A stretch of 64,000 nucleotides of DNA from a virus: IMG/VR virus record IMGVR_UViG_3300008952_000005, positions 96,001 to 160,000 of that record; one strand, 5' to 3'. The first letter of the stretch is position 1. The number at the start of each line of letters is the position of its first letter. Below, piece by piece: positions 27,727 through 54,262 of the stretch. Under the pieces are notes generated by a model, which was not told where the DNA came from, did not search any database, and saw only the letters and a list, made by a program, of their open reading frames with translations. Made by a program: the position numbers and the translations under genes.

Positions 27727-28020
27727 TTATTTCTTCCTTGTTCTCATACTAGATGTTGGTTGAGCACCTCTTACGTGAACCATACCACCCATAGTATTTT
27801 CTTTCTTTTTATTTCTTGGTTCTACTTTTGGATCAGCAGACAAAAAAGGTCTTTGATTTACTGCTGTTGTATAAGCAGCGTGTAATCCAACACCTCTAAC
27901 ATTTTTTCCACCTGCTTTCTTTTTAGGTGGTGTATCACCTAAACTTGCTATAGGTTGTACATTTGAATAGTTTCCTATTCTAACACCTGTTGTACCTATA
28001 AACTCTTTAAAACTTTTCAT
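27727..28020 (-). CDS. basic protein with capsid-targeting-like N-terminus
   Basis: starts MKSFKEFI. Confidence 0.6.
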   Translation of the reverse strand: MKSFKEFIGTTGVRIGNYSNVQPIASLGDTPPKKKAGGKNVRGVGLHAAYTTAVNQRPFLSADPKVEPRNKKKENTMGGMVHVRGAQPTSSMRTRKK

Positions 28021-29167: not shown

Positions 29168-29593
29168 CTACACCAATTTAGCGTAGACCTTTGATGTTCC
29201 GTTTTTCAAAGTTTCATAATTAACTTCTAAATTTAGACCGCCAGATTTTTTGTGTGATATACCATCATCATTAATATCAGAACCGTCTGTATCTTTTCCA
29301 AACCTTCCACCAAATTGACTAACTTTCGCACTAACTTTTCCAGATGTTCCTTCCATATTAACTGGTGATACTGTTAAACCAATTCGGTTTAGTTTTTCTC
29401 TCAAACTATCTACCGCTTGTTGTGGTTTAAGGTATTCCATATCTCCTATAGAACCTACAAAAGCATTAACTCTATTTAATACTTCTGGATCGGAAACGTT
29501 ATGTACGCCTAAATTACCATCTTCAACTGCATTAGATGTTGCTGTTCCAACCATCTTGCCGTCTTCTGTTATGTGTTGTTTAAACGTTTTCAT
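29168..29593 (-). CDS. protein with capsid-targeting-like N-terminus
   Basis: starts MKTFKQHITE. Confidence 0.65.
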   Translation of the reverse strand: MKTFKQHITEDGKMVGTATSNAVEDGNLGVHNVSDPEVLNRVNAFVGSIGDMEYLKPQQAVDSLREKLNRIGLTVSPVNMEGTSGKVSAKVSQFGGRFGKDTDGSDINDDGISHKKSGGLNLEVNYETLKNGTSKVYAKLV

Positions 29594-31367: not shown

Positions 31368-33149
31368 TTAATTAGTATAACTTATCTCTGGATCAGTTTC
31401 AATTTTTGAAGCAGGGTTACCAGTCATAGTTCTACCTTTTGTAGGTTCATCTTTCTTTTTAGCAAGTTTTGCTTTTTCTGCTTTTTCTTTAAGTCTTGCT
31501 CTTAAAGTTTCATATTTTAGTTTGTAAGGACTTACTGCTTCTTTTTTAACTTCGTCTTTGTCTTCTTTGTCTTCTTTGTCTTCTTTTTTTTCTGCTTTAT
31601 CTCTTAAAAGTTTTTGTGCTAGTCCAACTGTTAAAGGAACTTCTCCTGTTTCTTTATCTGCAACAGGTTTAATTACTTTACCTTTTTCATTTTCTAATTT
31701 TGCTTTTAATACATTAATTTGACCTTGCAACGTTAAAATTTGTTTCTCTTGTGCTGCTGGGTCTTTAGCACTTGGACCATCTTTACCATCTTTAGCATCC
31801 CTTGTTGCTCTTATCTTTGCAATCTTTACACCTGGTTTGTTATCTTTTGCAATAGGTGGAATTTTACTTTCATTTCTTGTAGGCAACAGTACAGAGTCTC
31901 CTCTTGTTGCTGTTTCATTAGCTGCTTTATTCCAAATATTTCTGATAGTATTTTCTAAATTTGTTGATGGTTCTGGTTTATCACTACCAATAACATCTTT
32001 CTTTGGTTCTTTTTTATCTTCTGTAGTAGATACATTTGCTGTACTAAACTTAACTTCTTTTTTCTTATCTGCCATTTTAGAAACTTCTCCAGCGTCAATC
32101 GTTTCAGTAGTAGATACGTTAGCAGTTTTAAAATCAACTTCTTTTTTCTTGTCTTTCATTTTAGATACTTCGCCTGCGTCAATCGTTTCTTGCATATCTT
32201 CTGTAGGTCTTTGTGTTTCTATTCCTGAAATACCAAAATGTATATCTTGGTCATAACCTTCTGCAAGTTTCCATCCTTTTGCTAAATATTCTTTTTCTTT
32301 AGACTTATCTATTACGATAGTCTTGCCGTGTTTAGAAACCATTGTTTCTTTTTTAGGGTCTTTAAGTTGTCTTGGTAATTCTTCTTCTATATCATTACCT
32401 TTAGGTTGTTTTTCAGCAACTCTATAACCAAATCTATATTTTTTTCTAACACCTCTTGAAGCAGTACCTCTTCTTGAAGATGAATTAGCTCCACCTGGCA
32501 TTGCTTCTGAAACAGTTTCTTCCGACATTGCTTCTTGTCTTGCTAAATTCTTTTCGTTTGCTAAATGAGGTTTGATTCTATTGCCATTATATGCTCTTTT
32601 ATTTTCAGGTATCTTTTCTACTTTACCACCTTTGTCAAGAAAGTCTTTCATCAACTGCTCATCAGCGTGTTTTCCATTAGAAGGTTTCCATTCTTCTTTT
32701 AATGCTTTTCCTTTATCCCAATAATGCCAGCTTGTTTTATCCCAAATTTCATCAGGTCCTATTAGTCGTTTAAATTCTCTTTCTGCCTTATTAAAAGCAT
32801 CAATTTTTTTCATTTTATTTTCTTTTGCATATTTAATAATAAGTGCCGCTACTTCTTTACCAGTTTCGTTAGTTGAAGCTATCCAACTTTGACTTTCTGG
32901 ATCTTTGTCCATCTCATCTTTACCTTTTTTGTATTCTCTAAATTTTGCTGCTATATTATTCCAGCTAACACCTTCGTCTAGCTTATTAAAAAATGCTATC
33001 TTTTCTTTAGGTGTCATTGAACCAATACCACCCATAGTATTTTTTAATGCTTCAGCGAATTTCTTTTTATAACCTTCTTCTTTATACTTCGCTTGATGTT
33101 GATATACCACATCCTCAATACTGCCTGGTTTTTGTTTTAAATATGTCAT
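31368..33149 (-). CDS. large charged low-complexity late protein (putative internal head protein)
   Basis: K/E-rich, many (L/I/V)-x-E sites; start moved to MTYLKQ. Confidence 0.6.
   Translation of the reverse strand: MTYLKQKPGSIEDVVYQHQAKYKEEGYKKKFAEALKNTMGGIGSMTPKEKIAFFNKLDEGVSWNNIAAKFREYKKGKDEMDKDPESQSWIASTNETGKEVAALIIKYAKENKMKKIDAFNKAEREFKRLIGPDEIWDKTSWHYWDKGKALKEEWKPSNGKHADEQLMKDFLDKGGKVEKIPENKRAYNGNRIKPHLANEKNLARQEAMSEETVSEAMPGGANSSSRRGTASRGVRKKYRFGYRVAEKQPKGNDIEEELPRQLKDPKKETMVSKHGKTIVIDKSKEKEYLAKGWKLAEGYDQDIHFGISGIETQRPTEDMQETIDAGEVSKMKDKKKEVDFKTANVSTTETIDAGEVSKMADKKKEVKFSTANVSTTEDKKEPKKDVIGSDKPEPSTNLENTIRNIWNKAANETATRGDSVLLPTRNESKIPPIAKDNKPGVKIAKIRATRDAKDGKDGPSAKDPAAQEKQILTLQGQINVLKAKLENEKGKVIKPVADKETGEVPLTVGLAQKLLRDKAEKKEDKEDKEDKDEVKKEAVSPYKLKYETLRARLKEKAEKAKLAKKKDEPTKGRTMTGNPASKIETDPEISYTN
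32022..32189 (-). repeat. 84-nt (28-aa) tandem duplication
   Basis: TIDAGEVSKMKDKKKEVDFKTANVSTTE followed by TIDAGEVSKMADKKKEVKFSTANVSTTE. Confidence 0.9.
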
Positions 33150-33153
33150 AGTA

Positions 33154-35091
33154 CTATTTATCTCCTCGTTTATGCTGGGACCACAATCTTTCAAAGGTCA
33201 TTTTAGCACCTACGTGCTCGTCCTTTTTAATTGCCTTAGCAATTTCGTGACCTTTTACTATCGTTGATTTTTTCAACGGTGTTCCGCTATCCTTTTTAAT
33301 CTCTTTTGCTTTTGCCATACCTATTGCATATGCTTTGTCATCATCTTCTACTAATTTTGATATGTGTGGTATGTCTGCCGCTTTAATTGCAAGTTGTGTA
33401 GGTATATCCATTCTCTTAATCATTTGTTTAACAGCGTCGGTTACATCTGTCGCTTTTTTATTCTTCCATACACCCTTAATATTAGCAATTTGTTTATCAC
33501 TCATTTTACTTTGTAAATATCCACTATCTTCTTTAATTACTTTAGCTGATTTAGTCTTACTCATATCACCTGTTTTATACCACTTAATATATTTTTCTGC
33601 TTCAGCAGGTGTATTATATTTACCAATAACTAATTTACTTCCATCTGTTTTTGTAATCTGTACTGTATATGCTTCTTTATATACATCAATTTCTACTGGA
33701 TCAAAACCACCAGGTCTACCAACAGACCTCTTTCGTTTATTCCATAACTCAGCAAATTTATCTGCTAATTTATCTGCTTTATTTTGTGCGTCTTTATCAT
33801 TAGAAGCAGTTAATGTTCCTTCATCTTCTTGATCCCCACCATCATTACCGTAATCGGATGATATCTTAATATCATAATGATATGTTGCTTCTGTAGCAAT
33901 TTGTTTGCCTTCTGGTTCTGGTAGTTTTTGTTCAACAGGTGATGTATTTCTACCCATTTTATTAATCTTAAAACCTTTGCTTCTTAATTTCTGTGCTTTG
34001 TTTTGTAAATCTTGTAGAGTTTTTGCGTCTTCAAAACCTGCGTGTTTGCCATACTTATCATCATAAGATAATCTGAAAGGTGCTTTTGCTTCTGGAACAT
34101 AACTATGTGTCATACTAGTAGTTATACTAATAGGTTTAGTAGTTGGTTCTATTTCAACATCATCTATGTCTTCAACACTACCACCACCACCTGGTCCTAT
34201 TTTTCTTCTCGCTCTATACTTATCTAATTCTTTTTCATATTTATTTTCAGCATCCTTTTTACTAGTTGCATTAATAACCATATCAAATCTATCTTGACTA
34301 CTAACATCTTTATAACCTAAAACACCTTGTATTCTCCATCTACCTTCATCTAATTGTTCTCTTCTCATTTGTGCCAATTGGGCAGCATTAGCTCCGTGTT
34401 TTGAAATGAGTCTTGCTTGCGCTAACATTGACACAAATGGAATCTTTGCCTTTAATAGTTTTATTAAAAGCGGTTTACTCTTATCAAACTTATCAAATAT
34501 TTTCATAAGTTTGTTAGCATTAACACCACTTATAGTTTTACCTTGTAAGGGTGCGTAATCTTTTTTCAAACTTGCTATTTGACTGTCTGTAAATTCCTGT
34601 AATGTGTCAACTTCTTCACCTAAAATAATTTTTACTGTTGATACTTTTAAATTTAATCTTTTGGCAATCTCTTTATGAGATTTACCTTCTTGATCCATCG
34701 TGTAGATATCTTTCATTCTACCTTCATCAAATTCTTCCAGTTCTTCTTTTGCCATAGACACAGGTTCAGTATTCAACCATTCTTGGTGTCTTTTGCCTGG
34801 GTGTACTTTTTTACAATCGTGTTCTTCACCTAAAATTGCTTTAGGCATTATTTGTACATCGCCGTGAGATTTTTCTACTTCTTTTTTTAGTAATGTTTTG
34901 GCTTTTTCTACGTCCCCTCTTGGAACGTATAAGTTACCGTATGAAAATCTAGTACGGCTAATTCCGTTTTTCTTTAGAAAAGATTGAACACCCCACTCAA
35001 AACCTTCGCTCATTTTATAGCGAGTCATACTCATAGGTTCTCTATACCTACTTTGTTTCCACTTTTCTAATTGTTCTTTTAAGTCGCCCAT
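33154..35091 (-). CDS. large multi-module late protein (putative internal head polyprotein) with HTH-like segment
   Basis: modules separated by ILGEE/LDEG/ATEA/IKED/LVED; SHKEIAKRLNLKVSTV HTH; start moved to MGDLKEQL. Confidence 0.6.
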   Translation of the reverse strand: MGDLKEQLEKWKQSRYREPMSMTRYKMSEGFEWGVQSFLKKNGISRTRFSYGNLYVPRGDVEKAKTLLKKEVEKSHGDVQIMPKAILGEEHDCKKVHPGKRHQEWLNTEPVSMAKEELEEFDEGRMKDIYTMDQEGKSHKEIAKRLNLKVSTVKIILGEEVDTLQEFTDSQIASLKKDYAPLQGKTISGVNANKLMKIFDKFDKSKPLLIKLLKAKIPFVSMLAQARLISKHGANAAQLAQMRREQLDEGRWRIQGVLGYKDVSSQDRFDMVINATSKKDAENKYEKELDKYRARRKIGPGGGGSVEDIDDVEIEPTTKPISITTSMTHSYVPEAKAPFRLSYDDKYGKHAGFEDAKTLQDLQNKAQKLRSKGFKINKMGRNTSPVEQKLPEPEGKQIATEATYHYDIKISSDYGNDGGDQEDEGTLTASNDKDAQNKADKLADKFAELWNKRKRSVGRPGGFDPVEIDVYKEAYTVQITKTDGSKLVIGKYNTPAEAEKYIKWYKTGDMSKTKSAKVIKEDSGYLQSKMSDKQIANIKGVWKNKKATDVTDAVKQMIKRMDIPTQLAIKAADIPHISKLVEDDDKAYAIGMAKAKEIKKDSGTPLKKSTIVKGHEIAKAIKKDEHVGAKMTFERLWSQHKRGDK

Positions 35092-35092
35092 T

Positions 35093-35515
35093 TTATTTGA
35101 ATCTATTATCTCTTTTGAAATTGTATGATAAACTATGTCTGCTGTATAAGTGTCCGCCGTGAGTGTCAAATACACGGTTTAATGAGTCCATATACTTTCT
35201 GTCTAAAACATTTCCTCTAGCACCTTTTGCTGGAGCATTAACACCAGCTGCCTTCAAAACATCTCCTGTTACCTTATCTACGAAGGCGTGGATACTTCTC
35301 TTTTGTCCTCGTTCCGTATCCCAAATTTTGATATACTTACCACCTACACTTGTAGCTACATCACGTCTTTGGTCTCTATATAAATTGGCAAATTGTGGGT
35401 GTCTTTTGATTTTTTCCCTAGCGATTTTAAGGTAATCATCTACGCCCTTTAAGACCATAGCCGAACTTTCTGCTACGTATAGTTTATGTACGTATTCTTT
35501 GAATTTAGTTGCCAT
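35093..35515 (-). CDS. conserved phage protein with capsid-targeting-like N-terminus
   Basis: MATKFKEYV...VAE; GKYIKIW..SIHAFVDKVTGDVLKAA..APAKGARGNV. Confidence 0.65.
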   Translation of the reverse strand: MATKFKEYVHKLYVAESSAMVLKGVDDYLKIAREKIKRHPQFANLYRDQRRDVATSVGGKYIKIWDTERGQKRSIHAFVDKVTGDVLKAAGVNAPAKGARGNVLDRKYMDSLNRVFDTHGGHLYSRHSLSYNFKRDNRFK

Positions 35516-35523
35516 TTCTCTCT

Positions 35524-38265
35524 CTAAAGTTTCTCAATCATCTTAGCGACTACTTCGTTTAGTTTCGCTTTCCACTCTTCTTTATAACGTTGTTTATATT
35601 TATCTATTGTTGAATCTTGGTTTGACCATTCTTTTACTTCCTTTGTAGTTAACTTATCTTCACCAACTTTAGCATCCGTTGCCTTACCTGGGCGTGATAT
35701 GTATGTATCAGTAGGTTTTCCTCGGTCTTTTGAGTCAACAGGAGGTGCATCCTCTTTTTCTCCAGGTGTCATCTGTTTACAATGATTAGCATAATCAGCA
35801 CCTATTTCATAACTATCTCTAATTGCTGTGTAAGGTTTAGGTACTGGTATCGTTTCAACTGCTTCAAATCCATAATCAATGTCTAGGTTGTATTCTCTTA
35901 ACAATGGTTCTTTATCAGCAGCAACTGGTATACAATCCCATATCCAGCATTTGTGTAAATTATTATTTGTATCTTCTAGTACAACATAATTCGTACCTCT
36001 TCGTACTACTTTACCTTGTTTATCTTCTTTAAGATATTTAACTTGGTCTCCAATATTGAATATCATCTCCCTAACGTATAGGTCTCTAACTTGTTTCTGT
36101 TCAAACTGTCCTAATGTCATAATAGGTTTTGAAGTATCTGGTTTATAGTCTTCTCTTATACCCATACCTTTTCTTACTGCTTTAAACAGTCCATCAACAT
36201 CTCTAAAATGAGATGGTAGTCCTCTCTTAAATGACGCTACATCACCTTTTTGAGCAGCATCCCTCATCTTGCTCGCACTCATACCTGAAGCACCCTCAGC
36301 GTCTGGATCACGCTCTCCAGCAGATATAACATCTATTGTTTTAAAGTTATAATATCCGTGTCTATTTTTCTGGTCGTTATATTTTTTAAGTATCGTTTCA
36401 AATTCTCTTACTCTATCACTACCTACTACAAATTTAAGAACATTATGCCCTTTGTTATATAACATAGTAGCAATATCTAATATCATATTTGTTGTATTAA
36501 TTTCAATGTTTCTAGCATATTGTGGAAATATCTTTTTCATCCAAGATAATTTCTCTCTAGGAGATAATGGATTCTTTTTACTATCTTCTGACCTACTGAT
36601 ATAGATTTTATAATTTCTATCTGCTCTTACAACTTTATTAATAAGTTTTTCGTGACCTATTGTTGGAGGATTAAATCTTCCAAATGTAATTGCAATAGAT
36701 TTTTCTCCTACTGCTTCTGATTTTAAACTTTTTATTTCTGCGTCTGTTACCTTTTCATCTTCTAATATTTTTTTACATTTGTAAAAGAATTTTGTGTAAT
36801 GAAATTTCTCCAAATACTTATAGACAACATTTTTAGGTAACTTATGAGCGATACCATATTTTTTAATCTCTTCTGGTGTCAAAGGTCTATTAAATAAATC
36901 TCTTCTTGCCTGCATAAGGTTATCACCCATTTCGGACATCTTCTTTATAGCATCCTCTATCTCTTCTAATTTCTCAGCAGTTTTTATATGTAAATCTAAT
37001 ATATCATTTGGTTTTAATTCTTTTAACTCTTCATAGTCAACTATATCTCTTTGTAATTCTCCTTTAACTACATCTAGTTCTGCCACTTTCTTTTGAAATT
37101 CTGCCTCATATACTTTAGGATCAAACGTTTGTTCTTTAGGTCTCTTATCAAATTTCTGTTTGAATACATCATAAACTCCTGTAGCAGTTTCAAGATGAGC
37201 GTCATTTACTTTAGGGTCTGTTTGAACATAATAATTAATCGGGTGTTGCGTACCTGGTACTAACTTACCACTAACTTCTCCTACAGATTGTCTTGCTTCT
37301 AAACCAACTGTTTCTCTATCTTTTTCTGGTATGTCTATCAATACATCAATATCTAAATCTGCGTCATTTCTATATCTCTTTCCAAGAATAGAACCTATTA
37401 ATTTTACTGACACAACAGGACCCCATTTTGAAAAATGTTTTGCACCTGCTTTAATCATATCTAAAACTTTTGGTTTTAATTTTGGATTTTCTGTTTCTGC
37501 GTCATCAAATACACCAACAGCATATCTACTTCTAGGTACATCTATAATACTTTCTCCCATTACCAATCTTCTACCAACACTAAACATTGTATTCTTAAAC
37601 ATTTGTTCTCTTGACATCCAATTTTTTGCAATATGACTTTTAACTGGTGCTCTCATATATCGTCTAACTAATCTGTCACAACCTGCTAATGTTTGTGACA
37701 CTAATTCTTTATCTGACCTATTATTATCTACTATAATAAAATTTGATTGACCAAATAATCTTTGAAATTTACCTATATTAGATTGCACTTTCTCCCAAGA
37801 TGTTTGTACAACATACTCTGGTATTTGCCTACTTCTTATTTTATTTCTTTCTAACGCAACAGGTAATGTTGTGTTAACAAATATCATATAACAATCATAA
37901 CCTAATGCGTGTAGCATATTATATTCGGAATTTATTCTTGCATAATCTCTTCCAGTTGCGTCAATAACTAAACCTAATCTGCCTCCTACATATTGGTGTA
38001 ACTGTTTCATCATTGTACCTTTTGCTCTGGCTCTTATAAGGTCTCTAAAATATTTTTCTTGGTCAGGCATTTTGTCTGAAAGTCCTGCCTGTTTCAATGC
38101 TCTTTCAAATATTGTATCTGAATTAACAAACTTTAATCCAGTTCCAGCAAATGCGGAAGAAGCGATAAAGGTTTTTCCTGAACCTGGTCCACCCGCCATA
38201 AAAAAGGCTTTAAATATACCTGGATCGTATACACCTTCTTGTAATAAAAATTCTTTAAACTTCAT
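35524..38265 (-). CDS. fusion of P-loop kinase, Pol-beta-type nucleotidyltransferase and HxGH cytidylyltransferase-like domain
   Basis: GGPGSGKT plus VIDAT; IGSI..RYRNDADLDID; FGRFNPPTIGHEKL, GSDR, SASKMR; C-terminal KOW/SH3-like region. Confidence 0.8.
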   Translation of the reverse strand: MKFKEFLLQEGVYDPGIFKAFFMAGGPGSGKTFIASSAFAGTGLKFVNSDTIFERALKQAGLSDKMPDQEKYFRDLIRARAKGTMMKQLHQYVGGRLGLVIDATGRDYARINSEYNMLHALGYDCYMIFVNTTLPVALERNKIRSRQIPEYVVQTSWEKVQSNIGKFQRLFGQSNFIIVDNNRSDKELVSQTLAGCDRLVRRYMRAPVKSHIAKNWMSREQMFKNTMFSVGRRLVMGESIIDVPRSRYAVGVFDDAETENPKLKPKVLDMIKAGAKHFSKWGPVVSVKLIGSILGKRYRNDADLDIDVLIDIPEKDRETVGLEARQSVGEVSGKLVPGTQHPINYYVQTDPKVNDAHLETATGVYDVFKQKFDKRPKEQTFDPKVYEAEFQKKVAELDVVKGELQRDIVDYEELKELKPNDILDLHIKTAEKLEEIEDAIKKMSEMGDNLMQARRDLFNRPLTPEEIKKYGIAHKLPKNVVYKYLEKFHYTKFFYKCKKILEDEKVTDAEIKSLKSEAVGEKSIAITFGRFNPPTIGHEKLINKVVRADRNYKIYISRSEDSKKNPLSPREKLSWMKKIFPQYARNIEINTTNMILDIATMLYNKGHNVLKFVVGSDRVREFETILKKYNDQKNRHGYYNFKTIDVISAGERDPDAEGASGMSASKMRDAAQKGDVASFKRGLPSHFRDVDGLFKAVRKGMGIREDYKPDTSKPIMTLGQFEQKQVRDLYVREMIFNIGDQVKYLKEDKQGKVVRRGTNYVVLEDTNNNLHKCWIWDCIPVAADKEPLLREYNLDIDYGFEAVETIPVPKPYTAIRDSYEIGADYANHCKQMTPGEKEDAPPVDSKDRGKPTDTYISRPGKATDAKVGEDKLTTKEVKEWSNQDSTIDKYKQRYKEEWKAKLNEVVAKMIEKL

Positions 38266-39480
38266 TTATTTCCATCCTTTTGGCAACGTAAAGTTTGCCC
38301 TACTAAATTCTAATCTATCTACTATTTTTACTGCACCTGCTACTCTATCTACTGCAACATATCCTTCAGGTGCTGTTACTCTATATCCTGTTCCAGTTTT
38401 AATGTAGTGTCCTATCTGTTGAATTTGATTCATCTTTTGTATCAATGTGTTCTTCGCATTACCTAAAGTTACGTGACTTGCTATCGCCATATATAAACCT
38501 GATTTATTTTGATTAATAAATCTTAATCCATCTGCTAATATATCTCTATATTTTTGTTTTGCTTTTTCAGTTTTTCTTTGGTCTATTTCTGTCTTCAAAA
38601 TGTTCTCATAATAATCTCTAAACATATCTTGCAAGACTCTAACCTTTGCCATACTGCCTTTATTATTTCTAATGTAATGATTGAAAAATGCTTTTAATCT
38701 AAACCCTACAGATAAAGGGTCACTAGCACGACTAGTCATTTCATCTAATATCTTACTTGCTTTACCTAAAGAACCTTCTGCCATTCTTAATTGAGCATCA
38801 AATTTTCCTAGTTCTGATTTAGTAAAAGTAATAGAACCAGAGTCATCCTTATATTCAGCACTCGCAACCCACACTCTTGAATTACCTGACCCTCTAACAT
38901 TACCAAAACTTGCACTTAAACTTTTCATATCTTTACCAGTATACATTGTATGAAATACAATACCCATTTTAGCACGAGCAATTTTCTTACCTATATTGCT
39001 ATTTGATTGTACTGCATATGTGATTGTATTTGGTGTAAAGGTTATCATTTTTTCACCATCAATTGAAGCTGATTTTTTATCGTTAGTAAATAATAAATCA
39101 CCTTGTAAAATTTGTTTAATGTTTAAACTAGATAAATGATTAAGACATACTGATAATTTTTGAGCGACAGGACCAGAATGGTTCCGTCTTATGTCTGCTG
39201 TTGTGTAATTGATTTTGGGAGTTTTGTTGAATATAGATTTAGTACCAACAAAGAATTGACCGTTTTCAGGATTGACACCACATATAATAGCAGGTGCCCC
39301 ATCCCATTTAACAGTAGTATTGATTTTTGCTCCCGAGTGACCTGCGAGCATATCTCTTACTGATTTTAGAAAGTTAATTGCGTTAACTCCACCAGCCGAA
39401 CCTCTATTGATTATATCATCTTCTAGGTGTTCTAGGTGTGTGTTCTTGTCGTTTGTGGTAAAACCTTTAAAACTAAACAT
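38266..39480 (-). CDS. conserved T4-like protein (DUF6267-like) with ATP-dependent ligase-type motifs
   Basis: HLEHLED, TVKWDGAPA (KxDG), QGDLLF, PEGYVAV, AVKIVDR. Confidence 0.65.
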   Translation of the reverse strand: MFSFKGFTTNDKNTHLEHLEDDIINRGSAGGVNAINFLKSVRDMLAGHSGAKINTTVKWDGAPAIICGVNPENGQFFVGTKSIFNKTPKINYTTADIRRNHSGPVAQKLSVCLNHLSSLNIKQILQGDLLFTNDKKSASIDGEKMITFTPNTITYAVQSNSNIGKKIARAKMGIVFHTMYTGKDMKSLSASFGNVRGSGNSRVWVASAEYKDDSGSITFTKSELGKFDAQLRMAEGSLGKASKILDEMTSRASDPLSVGFRLKAFFNHYIRNNKGSMAKVRVLQDMFRDYYENILKTEIDQRKTEKAKQKYRDILADGLRFINQNKSGLYMAIASHVTLGNAKNTLIQKMNQIQQIGHYIKTGTGYRVTAPEGYVAVDRVAGAVKIVDRLEFSRANFTLPKGWK

Positions 39481-39544: not shown

Positions 39545-39552
39545 TATTTATA
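39545..39552 (-). promoter_or_regulatory. T4-type late promoter
   Basis: TATAAATA upstream of 38266..39480. Confidence 0.7.
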
Positions 39553-39625: not shown

Positions 39626-39826
39626 ATGAAAACACACGAAAAAGACTTTGAGATTCTACAAGATGAAATTCAAAAAGTTTTAGATAAAGCTGAAATAAAA
39701 ATGAATACTCTTATAGATGATTATAGTACAAAGTATGAAGATGAAGATGACGCTGTACAAATTCAAACTTATGATTTAAGTTCTTTGTTCAGACAGTTAT
39801 CTGACTTTGTTGAAGACCATATATAA
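39626..39826 (+). CDS. small acidic protein on opposite strand
   Basis: 66 aa, 18 D/E; TG-A-TAGTAT 6 nt before ATG; codon usage like neighbours. Confidence 0.6.
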   Translation: MKTHEKDFEILQDEIQKVLDKAEIKMNTLIDDYSTKYEDEDDAVQIQTYDLSSLFRQLSDFVEDHI

Positions 39827-52849: not shown

Positions 52850-54262
52850 TTATTTTTTATTTTCTCCTTTCTTATCATCTAAACTATATTTTGTCGTAAT
52901 TATATATTTTCTATTAGGGTTAACCATAACATTAAATCTATTCATAGTTTCCCTATCAAATAATATTTTAGATTTTTCATCCCTATCATCTAGGGTAAAT
53001 TCTACTTCTTTGTAATATCCACCTGCAAATTTTACATCAAGTTTAATTACTATTCTTTCTTCTTTATAATCTCTTAATCCACCTACTTCAATTGTTTGCT
53101 TACGTACTATATCGTTTGATAGTGTCTTACCTTCTAACGACCAAGTAACTTTACCACCTGATTTTTTTATTTTATCAGCGTGTATAACAGACGTACCTGA
53201 ATTACCTGTATCAAATTTACCTACTATACGTCCAAATGGATGTATGTAGACAACTTCTTTATACCCACACATAGTTGGAACTTTTTTCCAATGTTCTCTA
53301 TTTTCAAAGTGTTGTATAATTTCTTTACTTAAATTTCTATTTGTTGCTTCTTCTATACCTTCTGTACCTGGTGAAGAGTTAACTTCAATAACAAATGGTT
53401 CTTCGTTTACTCTATCTGCTGACGGTATAAAATCTACTGCAACCCATTGACCATCTACTGCCTTAGCAGCTTTTAAACTTTCTTCTGTTTCTAATTTTGT
53501 TAATTTTAATTCTTCTACTTCTGCACCTCTTGATACATTACTTCTAAAATCTCCTGGCACTACGTGTCTTTTCATAGCAGCAAATACTTTACCTTGTAAT
53601 ACTAAAACTCTAGCATCCCATTTAGTTTTTATATATTGCTGTAATAATATATCAGAATCCTCATCTTGTTTATTAAGTAATTGTACTATTGAATCTAATG
53701 ATTTTTCTGATTCAATAAACAAGACACCAACACCTTTTGAACCTCTTAATGTCTTTAAGATAACAGGAAACTTTTCTTCTAAACTATTAAAAGATTCCAT
53801 TGAATTTTCTGGATCAGTTACCAATACTGATTTAGGTTGTCTAATACCATAGTCTGCTAATCTTAATGAAGTTCTATATTTGTCGGCACACATACTAACA
53901 CATTCTCTACTATTAACTACACACACTTGGTGTTTTTCTAATCTTGATACCAAGTCCATCCAACTATCTCTACGTACTACTGAACCTCTTATAACAGCAA
54001 CTGTATCTCTTGCCGATACTCTAAATCCTTTGTTGTCATCTTGATTATGGAAATACATTTCTCCATCATCTTCAACAGTTACATACCCACCAGTATTTCT
54101 ATAGATGTATGACTTATGACCAAGCTTATCTGCTTGTTTCATTAAGTTCTTTGCTGTATGGAAATTTAAATCATTTTCAGGTTCATCTGATATAATGATT
54201 AATCTATATGATCCAGAAGTTTTTGCTTCTGTTATGTAATCTTTGAATTTTGGTATCTGCAT
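52850..54262 (-). CDS. RimK-like ATP-grasp ligase fused to a RimK-associated aspartic protease domain
   Basis: DKYRT, PVILKTLRGSKGVGV, LLQQYI, DFRSNVSRG, IEVNSSPG, then KFDTGN; N-terminus MQIPKFKDYITE. Confidence 0.85.
   Translation of the reverse strand: MQIPKFKDYITEAKTSGSYRLIIISDEPENDLNFHTAKNLMKQADKLGHKSYIYRNTGGYVTVEDDGEMYFHNQDDNKGFRVSARDTVAVIRGSVVRRDSWMDLVSRLEKHQVCVVNSRECVSMCADKYRTSLRLADYGIRQPKSVLVTDPENSMESFNSLEEKFPVILKTLRGSKGVGVLFIESEKSLDSIVQLLNKQDEDSDILLQQYIKTKWDARVLVLQGKVFAAMKRHVVPGDFRSNVSRGAEVEELKLTKLETEESLKAAKAVDGQWVAVDFIPSADRVNEEPFVIEVNSSPGTEGIEEATNRNLSKEIIQHFENREHWKKVPTMCGYKEVVYIHPFGRIVGKFDTGNSGTSVIHADKIKKSGGKVTWSLEGKTLSNDIVRKQTIEVGGLRDYKEERIVIKLDVKFAGGYYKEVEFTLDDRDEKSKILFDRETMNRFNVMVNPNRKYIITTKYSLDDKKGENKK

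Follow-up and report, generated by a model that had tools for sequence, protein, structure and literature searches.

The open reading frame P0001 encodes a 105-kDa, 913-residue fusion of three enzymes that is probably a late-expressed, virion-packaged, and injected multi-enzyme cargo of a T4-like marine myophage, in effect a polyvalent protein in the style of T4. It lies at positions 35524..38265 of the window (the whole 64,000-nucleotide stretch of DNA that was analyzed) and, like all of the features described here, is on the minus strand; from the N terminus it consists of a leader, a P-loop kinase, a Pol-beta nucleotidyltransferase (NT), a (T/H)xGH nucleotidyltransferase (CT), a C-terminal module, and a C-terminal tail. 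An earlier note on this DNA had reported three catalytic signatures in one reading frame; these are confirmed at the coordinates given below, their residues are invariant in homologues, and an alignment indicates that all three are kept in relatives. The assignment of the domains as P-loop kinase, Pol-beta, and HxGH enzymes is likewise upheld by Pfam, by the alignments, and by a model of the Pol-beta domain.

The earlier note did not recognize this three-domain architecture, and a literature search found no published description of it, nor anything on DUF6267 or on the cytidyltransferase of HTVC008M, but marine phage metagenomes contain the architecture in abundance, and it is built from adjacent genes. 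Fusions of 900-927 amino acids occur by the dozen in marine metagenomes; split forms outnumber them, and the order is always DUF6267, kinase, NTase-HxGH. In the present phage the DUF6267 gene (P0002, 38266..39480) is immediately upstream, the ATG of P0001 directly abutting its TAA stop. A fused kinase-NT-CT gene comes straight after DUF6267 in about 19 IMG/VR loci, and a separate kinase of 227-237 amino acids followed by an NT-CT gene is found in about 35; in one locus (L003) DUF6267, NT, a 148-residue gene, and CT are all separate, and HTVC008M has DUF6267, a 170-residue gene, the kinase, and CT, without NT. CT follows DUF6267 in 57 of 57 cyanophage loci. Members of one freshwater-type clade often have no recognizable CT gene after DUF6267, which counts against the interpretation preferred here. 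Some relatives carry extra domains, namely a PAP2 phosphatase or an adenylate-kinase-like domain. Since the split relatives keep the neighboring gene order, P0001 is the lineage-specific product of a fusion between three genes, which many relatives have as separate neighbors.

The first 10 residues of P0001, MKFKEFLLQE (38236..38265), resemble the T4 capsid-targeting sequence (CTS), MKTYQEFIAE, and end with hydrophobic-x-Glu (h-x-E), in this case L-Q-E, a gp21-type cleavage motif; any protein that is fused to the T4 CTS gets packaged (PMC8442874). The case for a capsid-targeting-like leader has become much stronger than when it was first noticed in this sequence, the leader being common far beyond chance and modular across domains. 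Five of the 225 open reading frames in the genome bear it, as compared with 0.37 expected, with an approximately 14-fold N-terminal enrichment. In relatives it precedes any of four first domains (kinase, NTase, PAP2, or HxGH) and is always N-terminal: NT-CT genes start with MRFKDYIKE before SIIDIPR (pattern M[KR]FK[DE][FY]IxE), stand-alone CT genes with MKTYQRFMTE or MKFRQFILE, and stand-alone NT genes with MKTFKQFLxE. P0001 sits among late genes that form a block and bear leaders. A T4-type late promoter, TATAAATA (39545..39552), is located about 65 nucleotides upstream of the DUF6267 start; seven copies of this element are present in the window, as compared with 18 expected by chance, and all are on the coding strand. 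Downstream, the DUF7717 gene P0003 (35093..35515) has a leader-like N terminus, MATKFKEYVHKLYVAE, and its product is a probable co-packaged protein. The genome also encodes a gp21-type prohead protease (PF03420, 1.1e-36). Because P0001 is a late protein with a T4-style capsid tag, its injection together with the DNA is probable.

Homologues of the C-terminal part have been detected in virions. S-SZBM1_140, which starts with MRFRQFIIE and is 32% identical to residues 515-836 of P0001, was identified by LC-MS of virions purified on CsCl (PMC9146016), ORF154 of S-CREM2 was also detected in virions, and cytidyltransferases and kinases are noted as frequently detected in cyanophage virions (PMC10665884). 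It should be recognized that the homologue detections comprise 2-3 peptides with an emPAI of 0.26 (PMC9146016, PMC10665884) and that the authors of the S-CREM2 study allow for contamination (PMC10665884). With regard to processing, there are 23 h-x-E motifs in the 913 residues of P0001. The possibility of protease sites at all domain borders was rejected because the motif is too common and because the sites at the NT/CT and CT/C-terminal-module borders are not conserved, so that the credible sites are the leader and possibly the kinase/NT junction (residues 226-238, 37552..37590), which ends in M-G-E right before SIIDVPR and is the gene boundary in split relatives. The Glu before SIID is also kept in leaderless NT homologues, and its conservation is therefore no proof of cleavage.

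In the kinase domain (residues 11-225, 37591..38235), the Walker A motif GGPGSGKT (consensus GxxGxGK[ST]) occupies residues 25-32 (38170-38193) and VIDAT residues 100-104, and residues 22-162 match Pfam AAA_33 (PF13671) at 2.8e-12, scoring 47.6 bits where the cut-off is 27. Among 10 kinase orthologues, D50 (in NSD), D102 (in VIDAT), and the arginines R140, R144, and R146 are invariant; assigned by position only, D50 would be the general base, expected about 17-21 residues past the P-loop Lys, D102 the Walker B Asp, and the three arginines those of the lid. When the kinase profile was compared with the PDB, it matched zeta toxin (1.2e-4), the kinase of Clostridium thermocellum Pnkp (2e-3), and PSTK (6e-3), and the N-terminal enzyme of P0001 is a predicted hydroxyl-directed P-loop kinase of the zeta/PNK/PSTK type.

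The NT region (residues 239-516, 36718..37551) comprises a minimal Pol-beta NTase core and a C-terminal helical bundle. A Pol-beta site was defined as hG[GS] with DxD 9-13 residues on; in P0001, G291-S292 is followed ten residues on by D303-L-D305 (37351-37395 for the whole motif), and these residues are invariant in 21 homologues and nearly so in 51 distant members. The Pfam NTP_transf_2/Polbeta models are matched by 15 of the 21 close homologues and 25 of the 51 distant members of the NT family; P0001 itself gave no match to them at an E of 1 or better. An AlphaFold model of the domain, with a pLDDT of 94.5 and low values at residues 232-236, the first five of the modeled stretch, has the alpha/beta core of a minimal NTase. 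No third Pol-beta catalytic carboxylate is evident on the expected strand, HPINYYV, which holds the invariant H341 and N344; the nearly invariant D350 is located just after the strand. Foldseek matches of the model are weak (E 1e-3 or worse, with large rmsd in the full-length rows). Elsewhere, on contigs too short to show an informative gene context, domains of the NT family are joined to ART-PolyVal and PARP-like effector domains.

The CT domain (residues 520-712, 36130..36708) contains GRFNPPTIGH at residues 529-538 (36652-36681) and SASKMR at residues 663-668 (36262-36279), which correspond to the GxFxPxHxGH-type first motif and the SxxxxR (ISxTxxR) second motif and are invariant except for the two leading positions of the xxGH tetrad. 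For PF01467, with its gathering cut-off of 21 bits, P0001 scores 18.7 bits with hmmscan and 21.4 bits when the genome is searched, and the model is matched by 21 of 21 aligned relatives (best 9e-10). The domain matches the phrog_395 cytidyltransferase at 3.1e-68 and, on sequence grounds, represents a virus-only family, that of the "cytidyltransferase" core gene in T4-like cyanophages; an Atlas search with this part returned its own virus-only clusters and nothing else, and phmmer/hmmsearch against PDB sequences gave no meaningful match for the whole of P0001 or for the CT-family profile. The cyanophage cytidyltransferases (phrog_395; among them S-SZBM1_140, P-SSM4, and Syn19) are homologous to residues ∼515-836 of P0001 with 32-39% identity and, like P0001, have a leader and DUF6267 upstream, and they have been detected in virions; however, they consist of the HxGH domain and C-terminal module only (∼300-360 residues) and have HAGH, whereas P0001 has TIGH, and a kinase and a Pol-beta NTase are fused in front of the domain. 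For 7 of 8 members of the CT family, NMN/NaMN adenylyltransferases are the curated families that come closest; the CT family matches the NMNAT-domain model of NadR at 1.4e-7, and the phrog_3462 NMNAT matches the CT domain at 1.4e-4. All of the curated NCBIfam NMNAT cut-offs were failed (TIGR01526, 31 bits against 341; TIGR00482, 21.6 against 112), with alignments that extend no further than roughly model positions 73-109 from the start, and the NadR whole-protein model PRK08099 gave 16 bits against a cut-off of 201. A CoA-synthase-like reading (PPAT plus dephospho-CoA kinase), considered because of the TxGH motif and two weak PDB matches, was rejected, since the E values of the PDB matches are 0.13-0.93 and the profile prefers NMNAT models.

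The C-terminal module (residues 716-803, 35857..36120), with RDLY, GTNY, and W-I-W-D-C in invariant columns of the alignment, is always joined to the HxGH domain and is present in 57 of 57 cyanophage CT loci; it corresponds to no Pfam family and, from its sequence, is read as a predicted small beta-barrel. After it come a variable spacer and a conserved Lys-rich C-terminal helix (residues 815-913, 35527..35823) with W880, KY, and RY, described by the CTAIL profile.

The conserved neighbor DUF6267 has the ligase/capping-like motifs KWDG, QGD, PEGxVA, and AxKxxxR, which are invariant, and it matches an RNA ligase weakly. Searches of Pfam and PDB sequences by phmmer/hmmsearch, including searches with the profile, gave no ligase match; Foldseek with a model of the protein, which is poor around K58 and at the C terminus, gave no row below E 0.04, the wider PDB rows being helical bundles, and an Atlas search returned its own virus-only family alone. 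No canonical DNA or RNA ligase was found in the complete genome. DUF6267 is described here as a candidate ligase/capping-like protein.

If P0001 is packaged, its leader would dock it to the prohead core, and the phage gp21-type protease would cut after Glu10; a possible second cut after Glu238 would free the kinase. The enzymes would remain in the head with the DNA and be ejected into the next host, where they would act before any phage gene expression. As to their chemistry, the possibility favored here, although tentatively, is that P0001 and the ligase-like DUF6267 together heal and seal broken nucleic acid ends, in the form of nicks in the phage DNA or of RNA cleaved by nucleases of the host. 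The kinase would phosphorylate 5'-OH ends, the Pol-beta domain would add nucleotides at 3'-OH ends, and the NMNAT-like domain might either adenylylate 5'-phosphates or regenerate a dinucleotide cofactor for the ligase-like enzyme. HxGH enzymes, however, normally work on small molecules and not on polynucleotides, which counts against end healing. The more specific proposal that the DUF6267-kinase-NTase-HxGH block is a capsid-carried heal-and-seal kit, in which DUF6267 represents a new ligase family and repair precedes phage gene expression, is doubtful. Repair of tRNA ends was among the options in the earlier note, and repair of tRNA or nucleic acid ends gains some support from the conserved ligase-like neighbor and the PNK/zeta-type kinase. 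In RNA repair systems (T4 Pnk with Rnl1/Rnl2; bacterial Pnkp/Hen1), as in the P0001 locus, a PNK-like kinase is found beside a ligase, represented here by a KxDG ligase-like protein; a phosphatase is present in some relatives of P0001, and the nucleotidyltransferase could rebuild 3' ends. The locus differs from these systems in having no canonical ligase, HAD, or metallophosphoesterase and in its late, virion-directed expression, as opposed to early cytoplasmic expression, and we know of no counterpart of the HxGH enzyme in known repair systems.

Three other interpretations of P0001 have to be considered. A pathway like that of NadR, in which the kinase would phosphorylate a nucleoside, for instance nicotinamide riboside, and the HxGH domain would adenylylate the product to give NAD+ or another pyrophosphate-linked dinucleotide, would boost or rebuild the cofactor pool at the start of infection and is compatible with packaging, but we regard it as rather unlikely. 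The NMN/NaMN adenylyltransferase affinities of the CT family described above argue for it, as do the adenylate-kinase-like domain added in some relatives and the fusion of NT relatives to NAD-using ADP-ribosyltransferase domains, and the pairing of kinase and HxGH domain follows the logic of NadR, which combines an NMN adenylyltransferase of the HxGH class and a P-loop ribosylnicotinamide kinase in one protein. P0001, however, has these domains in the opposite order, lacks an HTH, has a kinase from another family (AAA_33/zeta/PNK-like), and contains a Pol-beta domain in addition; the NMNAT scores are far under the cut-offs (∼31 bits against 341 and 112) and involve only about the first 73 profile positions, which make up the nucleotide-binding motif, and the score of the whole-protein NadR model is likewise far below its cut-off. 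The pathway also provides no role for the conserved DUF6267 partner, the Pol-beta domain, or the PAP2 domain. No Nampt was found in the complete genome, so that nicotinamide and ADP-ribose from NADase defenses cannot be recycled; together with the late promoter and the failure of the curated NMNAT cut-offs, this weakens the earlier suggestion that the enzyme rebuilds NAD to counter NAD-depleting defenses.

An injected anti-defense modifier, in which the NTase and perhaps the kinase would NMPylate or phosphorylate a host protein (for example a HEPN nuclease, as with MNT antitoxins) or else a small-molecule immune signal or toxin, and which can be likened to ANT/APH resistance enzymes or to T4 Alt, would also be delivered with the DNA. 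It is improbable, given the weak structural matches of the NT model and the fact that the HxGH domain and DUF6267, the conserved core of the module, are left without a role; no target is identifiable. Packaging itself is denied by the view that P0001 is an unpackaged cytoplasmic late enzyme, the product of an auxiliary metabolic gene, with an N-terminal peptide that is a conserved helix or a translation-initiation feature and with virion detections that represent carry-over of an abundant late protein. The low abundance of the proteomic detections and the mention of possible contamination by their authors are in accord with this view, but it has to accommodate the occurrence of one peptide, matching the experimentally defined T4 CTS, before four unrelated domains, as well as the N-terminal enrichment of the leader, the late promoter, and the block of leader-bearing late genes. 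Moreover, an enzyme made only late in infection would have little opportunity to work before that cycle ends, and we consider this view quite improbable.

The preferred interpretation, that P0001 is injected cargo, places it beside two groups of known proteins. Polyvalent proteins (Iyer et al. 2017, PMC5512222), which occur in phages and in conjugative elements, are packaged, injected multi-enzyme proteins. As they are described in the passages of that survey used here, P0001 resembles them in having several unrelated effector-type catalytic domains, a location among late genes, and a predicted co-delivery with DNA, and relatives of its NT domain occur with ART-PolyVal; however, the zincin-like peptidase hub is absent from P0001, whose delivery would use the T4 CTS and prohead protease instead. 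In the same passages, Pol-beta NTases are reported solely among those polyvalent proteins that belong to conjugative elements, and an HxGH enzyme, NMNAT, or P-loop kinase is not named (PMC5512222). With the T4 proteins IPI, IPII, IPIII, and Alt, which are CTS-targeted, processed by gp21, and injected, P0001 shares a leader some 10 residues long (M-K-x-(F/Y)-(K/Q)-x-F-h-x-E), a late promoter, and a T4-type protease, and, as with Alt, the cargo is an enzyme. The T4 proteins are small basic proteins or an ADP-ribosyltransferase, whereas P0001 is a large kinase/nucleotidyltransferase fusion with predicted packaging and cleavage.

The HxGH "cytidyltransferase" and DUF6267 are core genes in T4-like phages of Prochlorococcus, Synechococcus, SAR11, and OM43-type hosts, which rank as the most abundant bacteria in the ocean, and to our knowledge the function of neither has ever been established. 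The present analysis presents them as parts of a module that has a T4-type capsid tag and grows by the addition of enzymes, including a kinase, a Pol-beta NTase, a PAP2 phosphatase, and an adenylate-kinase-like domain. The tag and this accretion of enzymes recast the module from an "auxiliary metabolic gene" to a putative injected cargo that would be active in the first seconds of infection; by a rough estimate, the injection of a few dozen molecules of enzyme could suffice for micromolar concentrations in cells the size of SAR11. The findings also suggest conservation of the T4 CTS mechanism throughout Kyanoviridae-like phages, which would use it to deliver enzymes, and it could serve for the delivery of proteins.

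P0001 is encoded on the minus strand of the window (35524-38265) by an ORF for 913 residues with an ATG start, exactly as the earlier note had placed it, and the kinase, Pol-β, and HxGH signatures described there were all found and are conserved in relatives. The gene follows one encoding a DUF6267 protein (38266-39480, minus strand), whose TAA stop immediately precedes the P0001 start (TAAATG). The source is a complete T4-like virus genome of 177,460 bp, with genes for DNA polymerase, UvsX, a DnaB-type helicase, clamp loader, RNR, CobS, and a gp21-type prohead protease; by tblastn, its closest cultured relative is Pelagibacter phage HTVC008M. The DUF6267 start is preceded, at a distance of about 65 nt, by a late-promoter motif, TATAAATA. 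A motif search of the window found only seven copies as compared with 18 expected from shuffles, all on the coding (minus) strand (23845, 30449, 30835, 39545, 41015, 46655, and 57749), a distribution consistent with T4-type late promoters. An ORF for an acidic 66-residue protein is found on the opposite strand (39626-39826, plus strand), in the gap that separates the gene labeled P0004 from the DUF6267 operon's late promoter.

The T4 capsid-targeting sequence, MKTYQEFIAE, is removed by cleavage in the head, and proteins fused to it are packaged (PMC8442874; PMC3012670). P0001 begins with MKFKEFLLQE, and a peptide of this type is present at the N terminus of its relatives whichever domain leads, be it the kinase, the Pol-β nucleotidyltransferase (NT), a PAP2 phosphatase, or the HxGH "cytidyltransferase" with its C-terminal module (CT). 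Examples are MKKLNQILRE followed by GVYD in kinase-first proteins; MRFKDYIKE followed by SIIDIPR in NT-first proteins and MKTFKQFLxE in stand-alone NT genes; and MKTYQRFMTE, MKFRQFILE, and, in S-SZBM1_140, MRFRQFIIE in CT-first proteins. A leader-like LREFREYLRE is retained at an internal junction, after an adenylate-kinase-like domain and before GVYD; at the PAP2/NT junction a Glu stands just ahead of SIIDIPR, and fused genes have only K-L-N-E or M-G-E ahead of SIID. Leader-type starts occur in five of the 225 ORFs of the genome (0.37 expected), all inside the window. The four besides P0001, all on the minus strand, start MKSFKEFIGT (27727-28020), MKTFKQHITE (29168-29593), MATKFKEYVHKLYVAE (35093-35515), and MQIPKFKDYITE (52850-54262, a 470-residue RimK/ATP-grasp-like protein, phrog_2599), and are, from their N termini, candidate co-packaged proteins. 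The same late block (31368-35175, minus strand) also encodes two proteins rich in Lys and Glu (608 and 673 residues), neither with a PHROG family, that are possible internal head proteins.

Cytidylyltransferases have been detected by LC-MS in CsCl-purified virions of the cyanophages S-SZBM1 (PMC9146016) and S-CREM2 (PMC10665884), and sequence comparison confirmed S-SZBM1_140 as a P0001 homologue. The authors of the S-CREM2 study state that cytidyltransferases and kinases are often detected in cyanophage virions, with a caution about carry-over (PMC10665884).

The kinase domain has a Walker A motif, GGPGSGKT, at residues 25-32 and matches AAA_33 in Pfam (2.8e-12); Asp50, Asp102, and Arg140/Arg144/Arg146 do not vary among orthologues. 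The top profile matches are zeta toxin (1.2e-4), the Clostridium thermocellum Pnkp kinase domain (2e-3), and PSTK (6e-3), kinases whose targets are hydroxyls of sugars, of polynucleotide ends, or of serine bound to tRNA. In NT, Gly291-Ser292 and Asp303-x-Asp305 are invariant across relatives, and a third Pol-β carboxylate is not evident in P0001. By itself P0001 is below Pfam significance for the Pol-β domain and borderline for PF01467, so that both assignments are made through relatives; half of a 51-member NT family sample matched NTP_transf_2, Polbeta, or MTPAP-like_central. Residues 232-520, used as the query of an exhaustive HMMER search, matched 636 clusters, many of them stand-alone proteins of about 285-300 residues; from the resulting alignment, AlphaFold gave a high-confidence model (pLDDT 94.5, pTM 0.86). 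Pol-β enzymes (ANT/AAD, LinB, CD-NTases, MNT, and Cid1) fill almost the whole Foldseek list, with E-values that are weak throughout (1e-3 or worse). The C-terminal half of the model is a long helical bundle for which Foldseek found no specific relative. On the Pfam matches of relatives, the model, and the Foldseek list, NT is a Pol-β nucleotidyltransferase of a distinct phage-borne family.

CT corresponds to the gene known in T4-like marine phages as the "cytidyltransferase" (phrog_395, 3.1e-68; 550 phage records), a core gene long annotated and uncharacterized. Its GRFNPPTIGH and SASKMR motifs are conserved, its Atlas neighbors are clusters of viruses only, and on its C-terminal side the HxGH domain invariably carries a conserved module (residues 716-803) and a Lys-rich tail. 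The closest curated models for seven of eight family members are NMN/NaMN adenylyltransferases, but the scores, 20-31 bits, fall far short of the cut-offs (112-341), and the alignments span the nucleotide-binding motif only; on these scores CT is NMNAT-like but lies outside the NMNAT families.

The three-domain architecture, which the earlier note did not recognize, is not unique, although no published account was found. A word-indexed search returned thousands of relatives, including many triple fusions of 899-927 residues, which are outnumbered by kinase-less proteins of 700-830 residues. Among IMG/VR contigs located through the upstream DUF6267 gene, the gene is fused at about 19 loci, and at about 35 a separate kinase gene (227-237 residues) abuts or overlaps an NT-CT gene. 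One contig (L003) has DUF6267, NT, a 148-residue gene, and CT as four genes; HTVC008M has DUF6267, a 170-residue gene, kinase, and CT, without NT; and in the cyanophage clade CT follows DUF6267 at 57 of 57 loci. Because the split forms keep the neighboring order, P0001 is a lineage-specific fusion of adjacent genes, whose order (DUF6267, kinase, NT, CT) is fixed. Some NT-CT genes have a PAP2 phosphatase inserted between leader and NT, and some relatives an adenylate-kinase-like domain ahead of the kinase; such additions are found in the kinase genes of loci L044 and L080 and in the related protein P0051. In a freshwater-type clade (L211, L213, and similar loci), DUF6267 has the leader MNFTQFLTE, and what comes next is small ORFs and genes for sugar modification (one 342-residue, epimerase-like), with no recognizable CT.

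The tRNA end-repair option of the earlier note fares best, though tentatively, in the form that P0001 and DUF6267 heal and seal nucleic-acid ends, as it covers the largest number of components: a PNK-like kinase, a 3'-end nucleotidyltransferase, an occasional phosphatase, and a ligase-like partner would act together, with the NMNAT-like domain adenylylating 5' ends or regenerating a cofactor. In DUF6267 the motifs KWDG, QGD, PEGxVA, and AxKxxxR are invariant and follow one another as in ligases and capping enzymes, and no canonical DNA or RNA ligase was found in the complete genome; it could therefore be a divergent ligase. A helical insertion of about 130 residues divides its putative nucleotidyltransferase core. 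Rebuilding of NAD, also suggested earlier, here as NadR-like dinucleotide synthesis, draws on the resemblance of CT to NMNATs but is rather unlikely, as CT fails the NMNAT cut-offs, the genome has no Nampt, and the partner proteins are left unexplained. NMPylation or phosphorylation of host defense proteins or small molecules, to which the MNT/ANT-like fold of the NT model may point, is less probable again, and a metabolic role without packaging is slightly more doubtful still.

None of the folds is new in itself, and neither packaged enzymes nor polyvalent proteins are novel ideas; no published account was found of a modular tag resembling the capsid-targeting sequence on the CT family, of its stepwise gain of kinase, Pol-β nucleotidyltransferase, phosphatase, and adenylate-kinase-like domains, or of its linkage with a ligase-like DUF6267. 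Cutting at the kinase/NT junction might also separate the enzymes. The Glu at that junction is conserved also in leaderless NT proteins, P0001 contains 23 h-x-E motifs in 913 residues, and those bordering NT/CT and CT/C-terminal module are not conserved among relatives. NT homologues are also fused to an ART-PolyVal ADP-ribosyltransferase domain (P0267, 907 residues) or a PARP-like domain (P0209, 757 residues), fusions that fit the polyvalent-protein theme; others lie inside proteins of 1,500-3,974 residues without a Pfam match. The best-supported reading is that P0001 is a head-packaged, leader-clipped, and injected multi-enzyme cargo, in which the leader would dock the protein to the prohead core and be clipped and the enzymes would be ejected with the DNA into the next host, making P0001 the T4-style equivalent of the polyvalent proteins described by Iyer et al. 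(PMC5512222).
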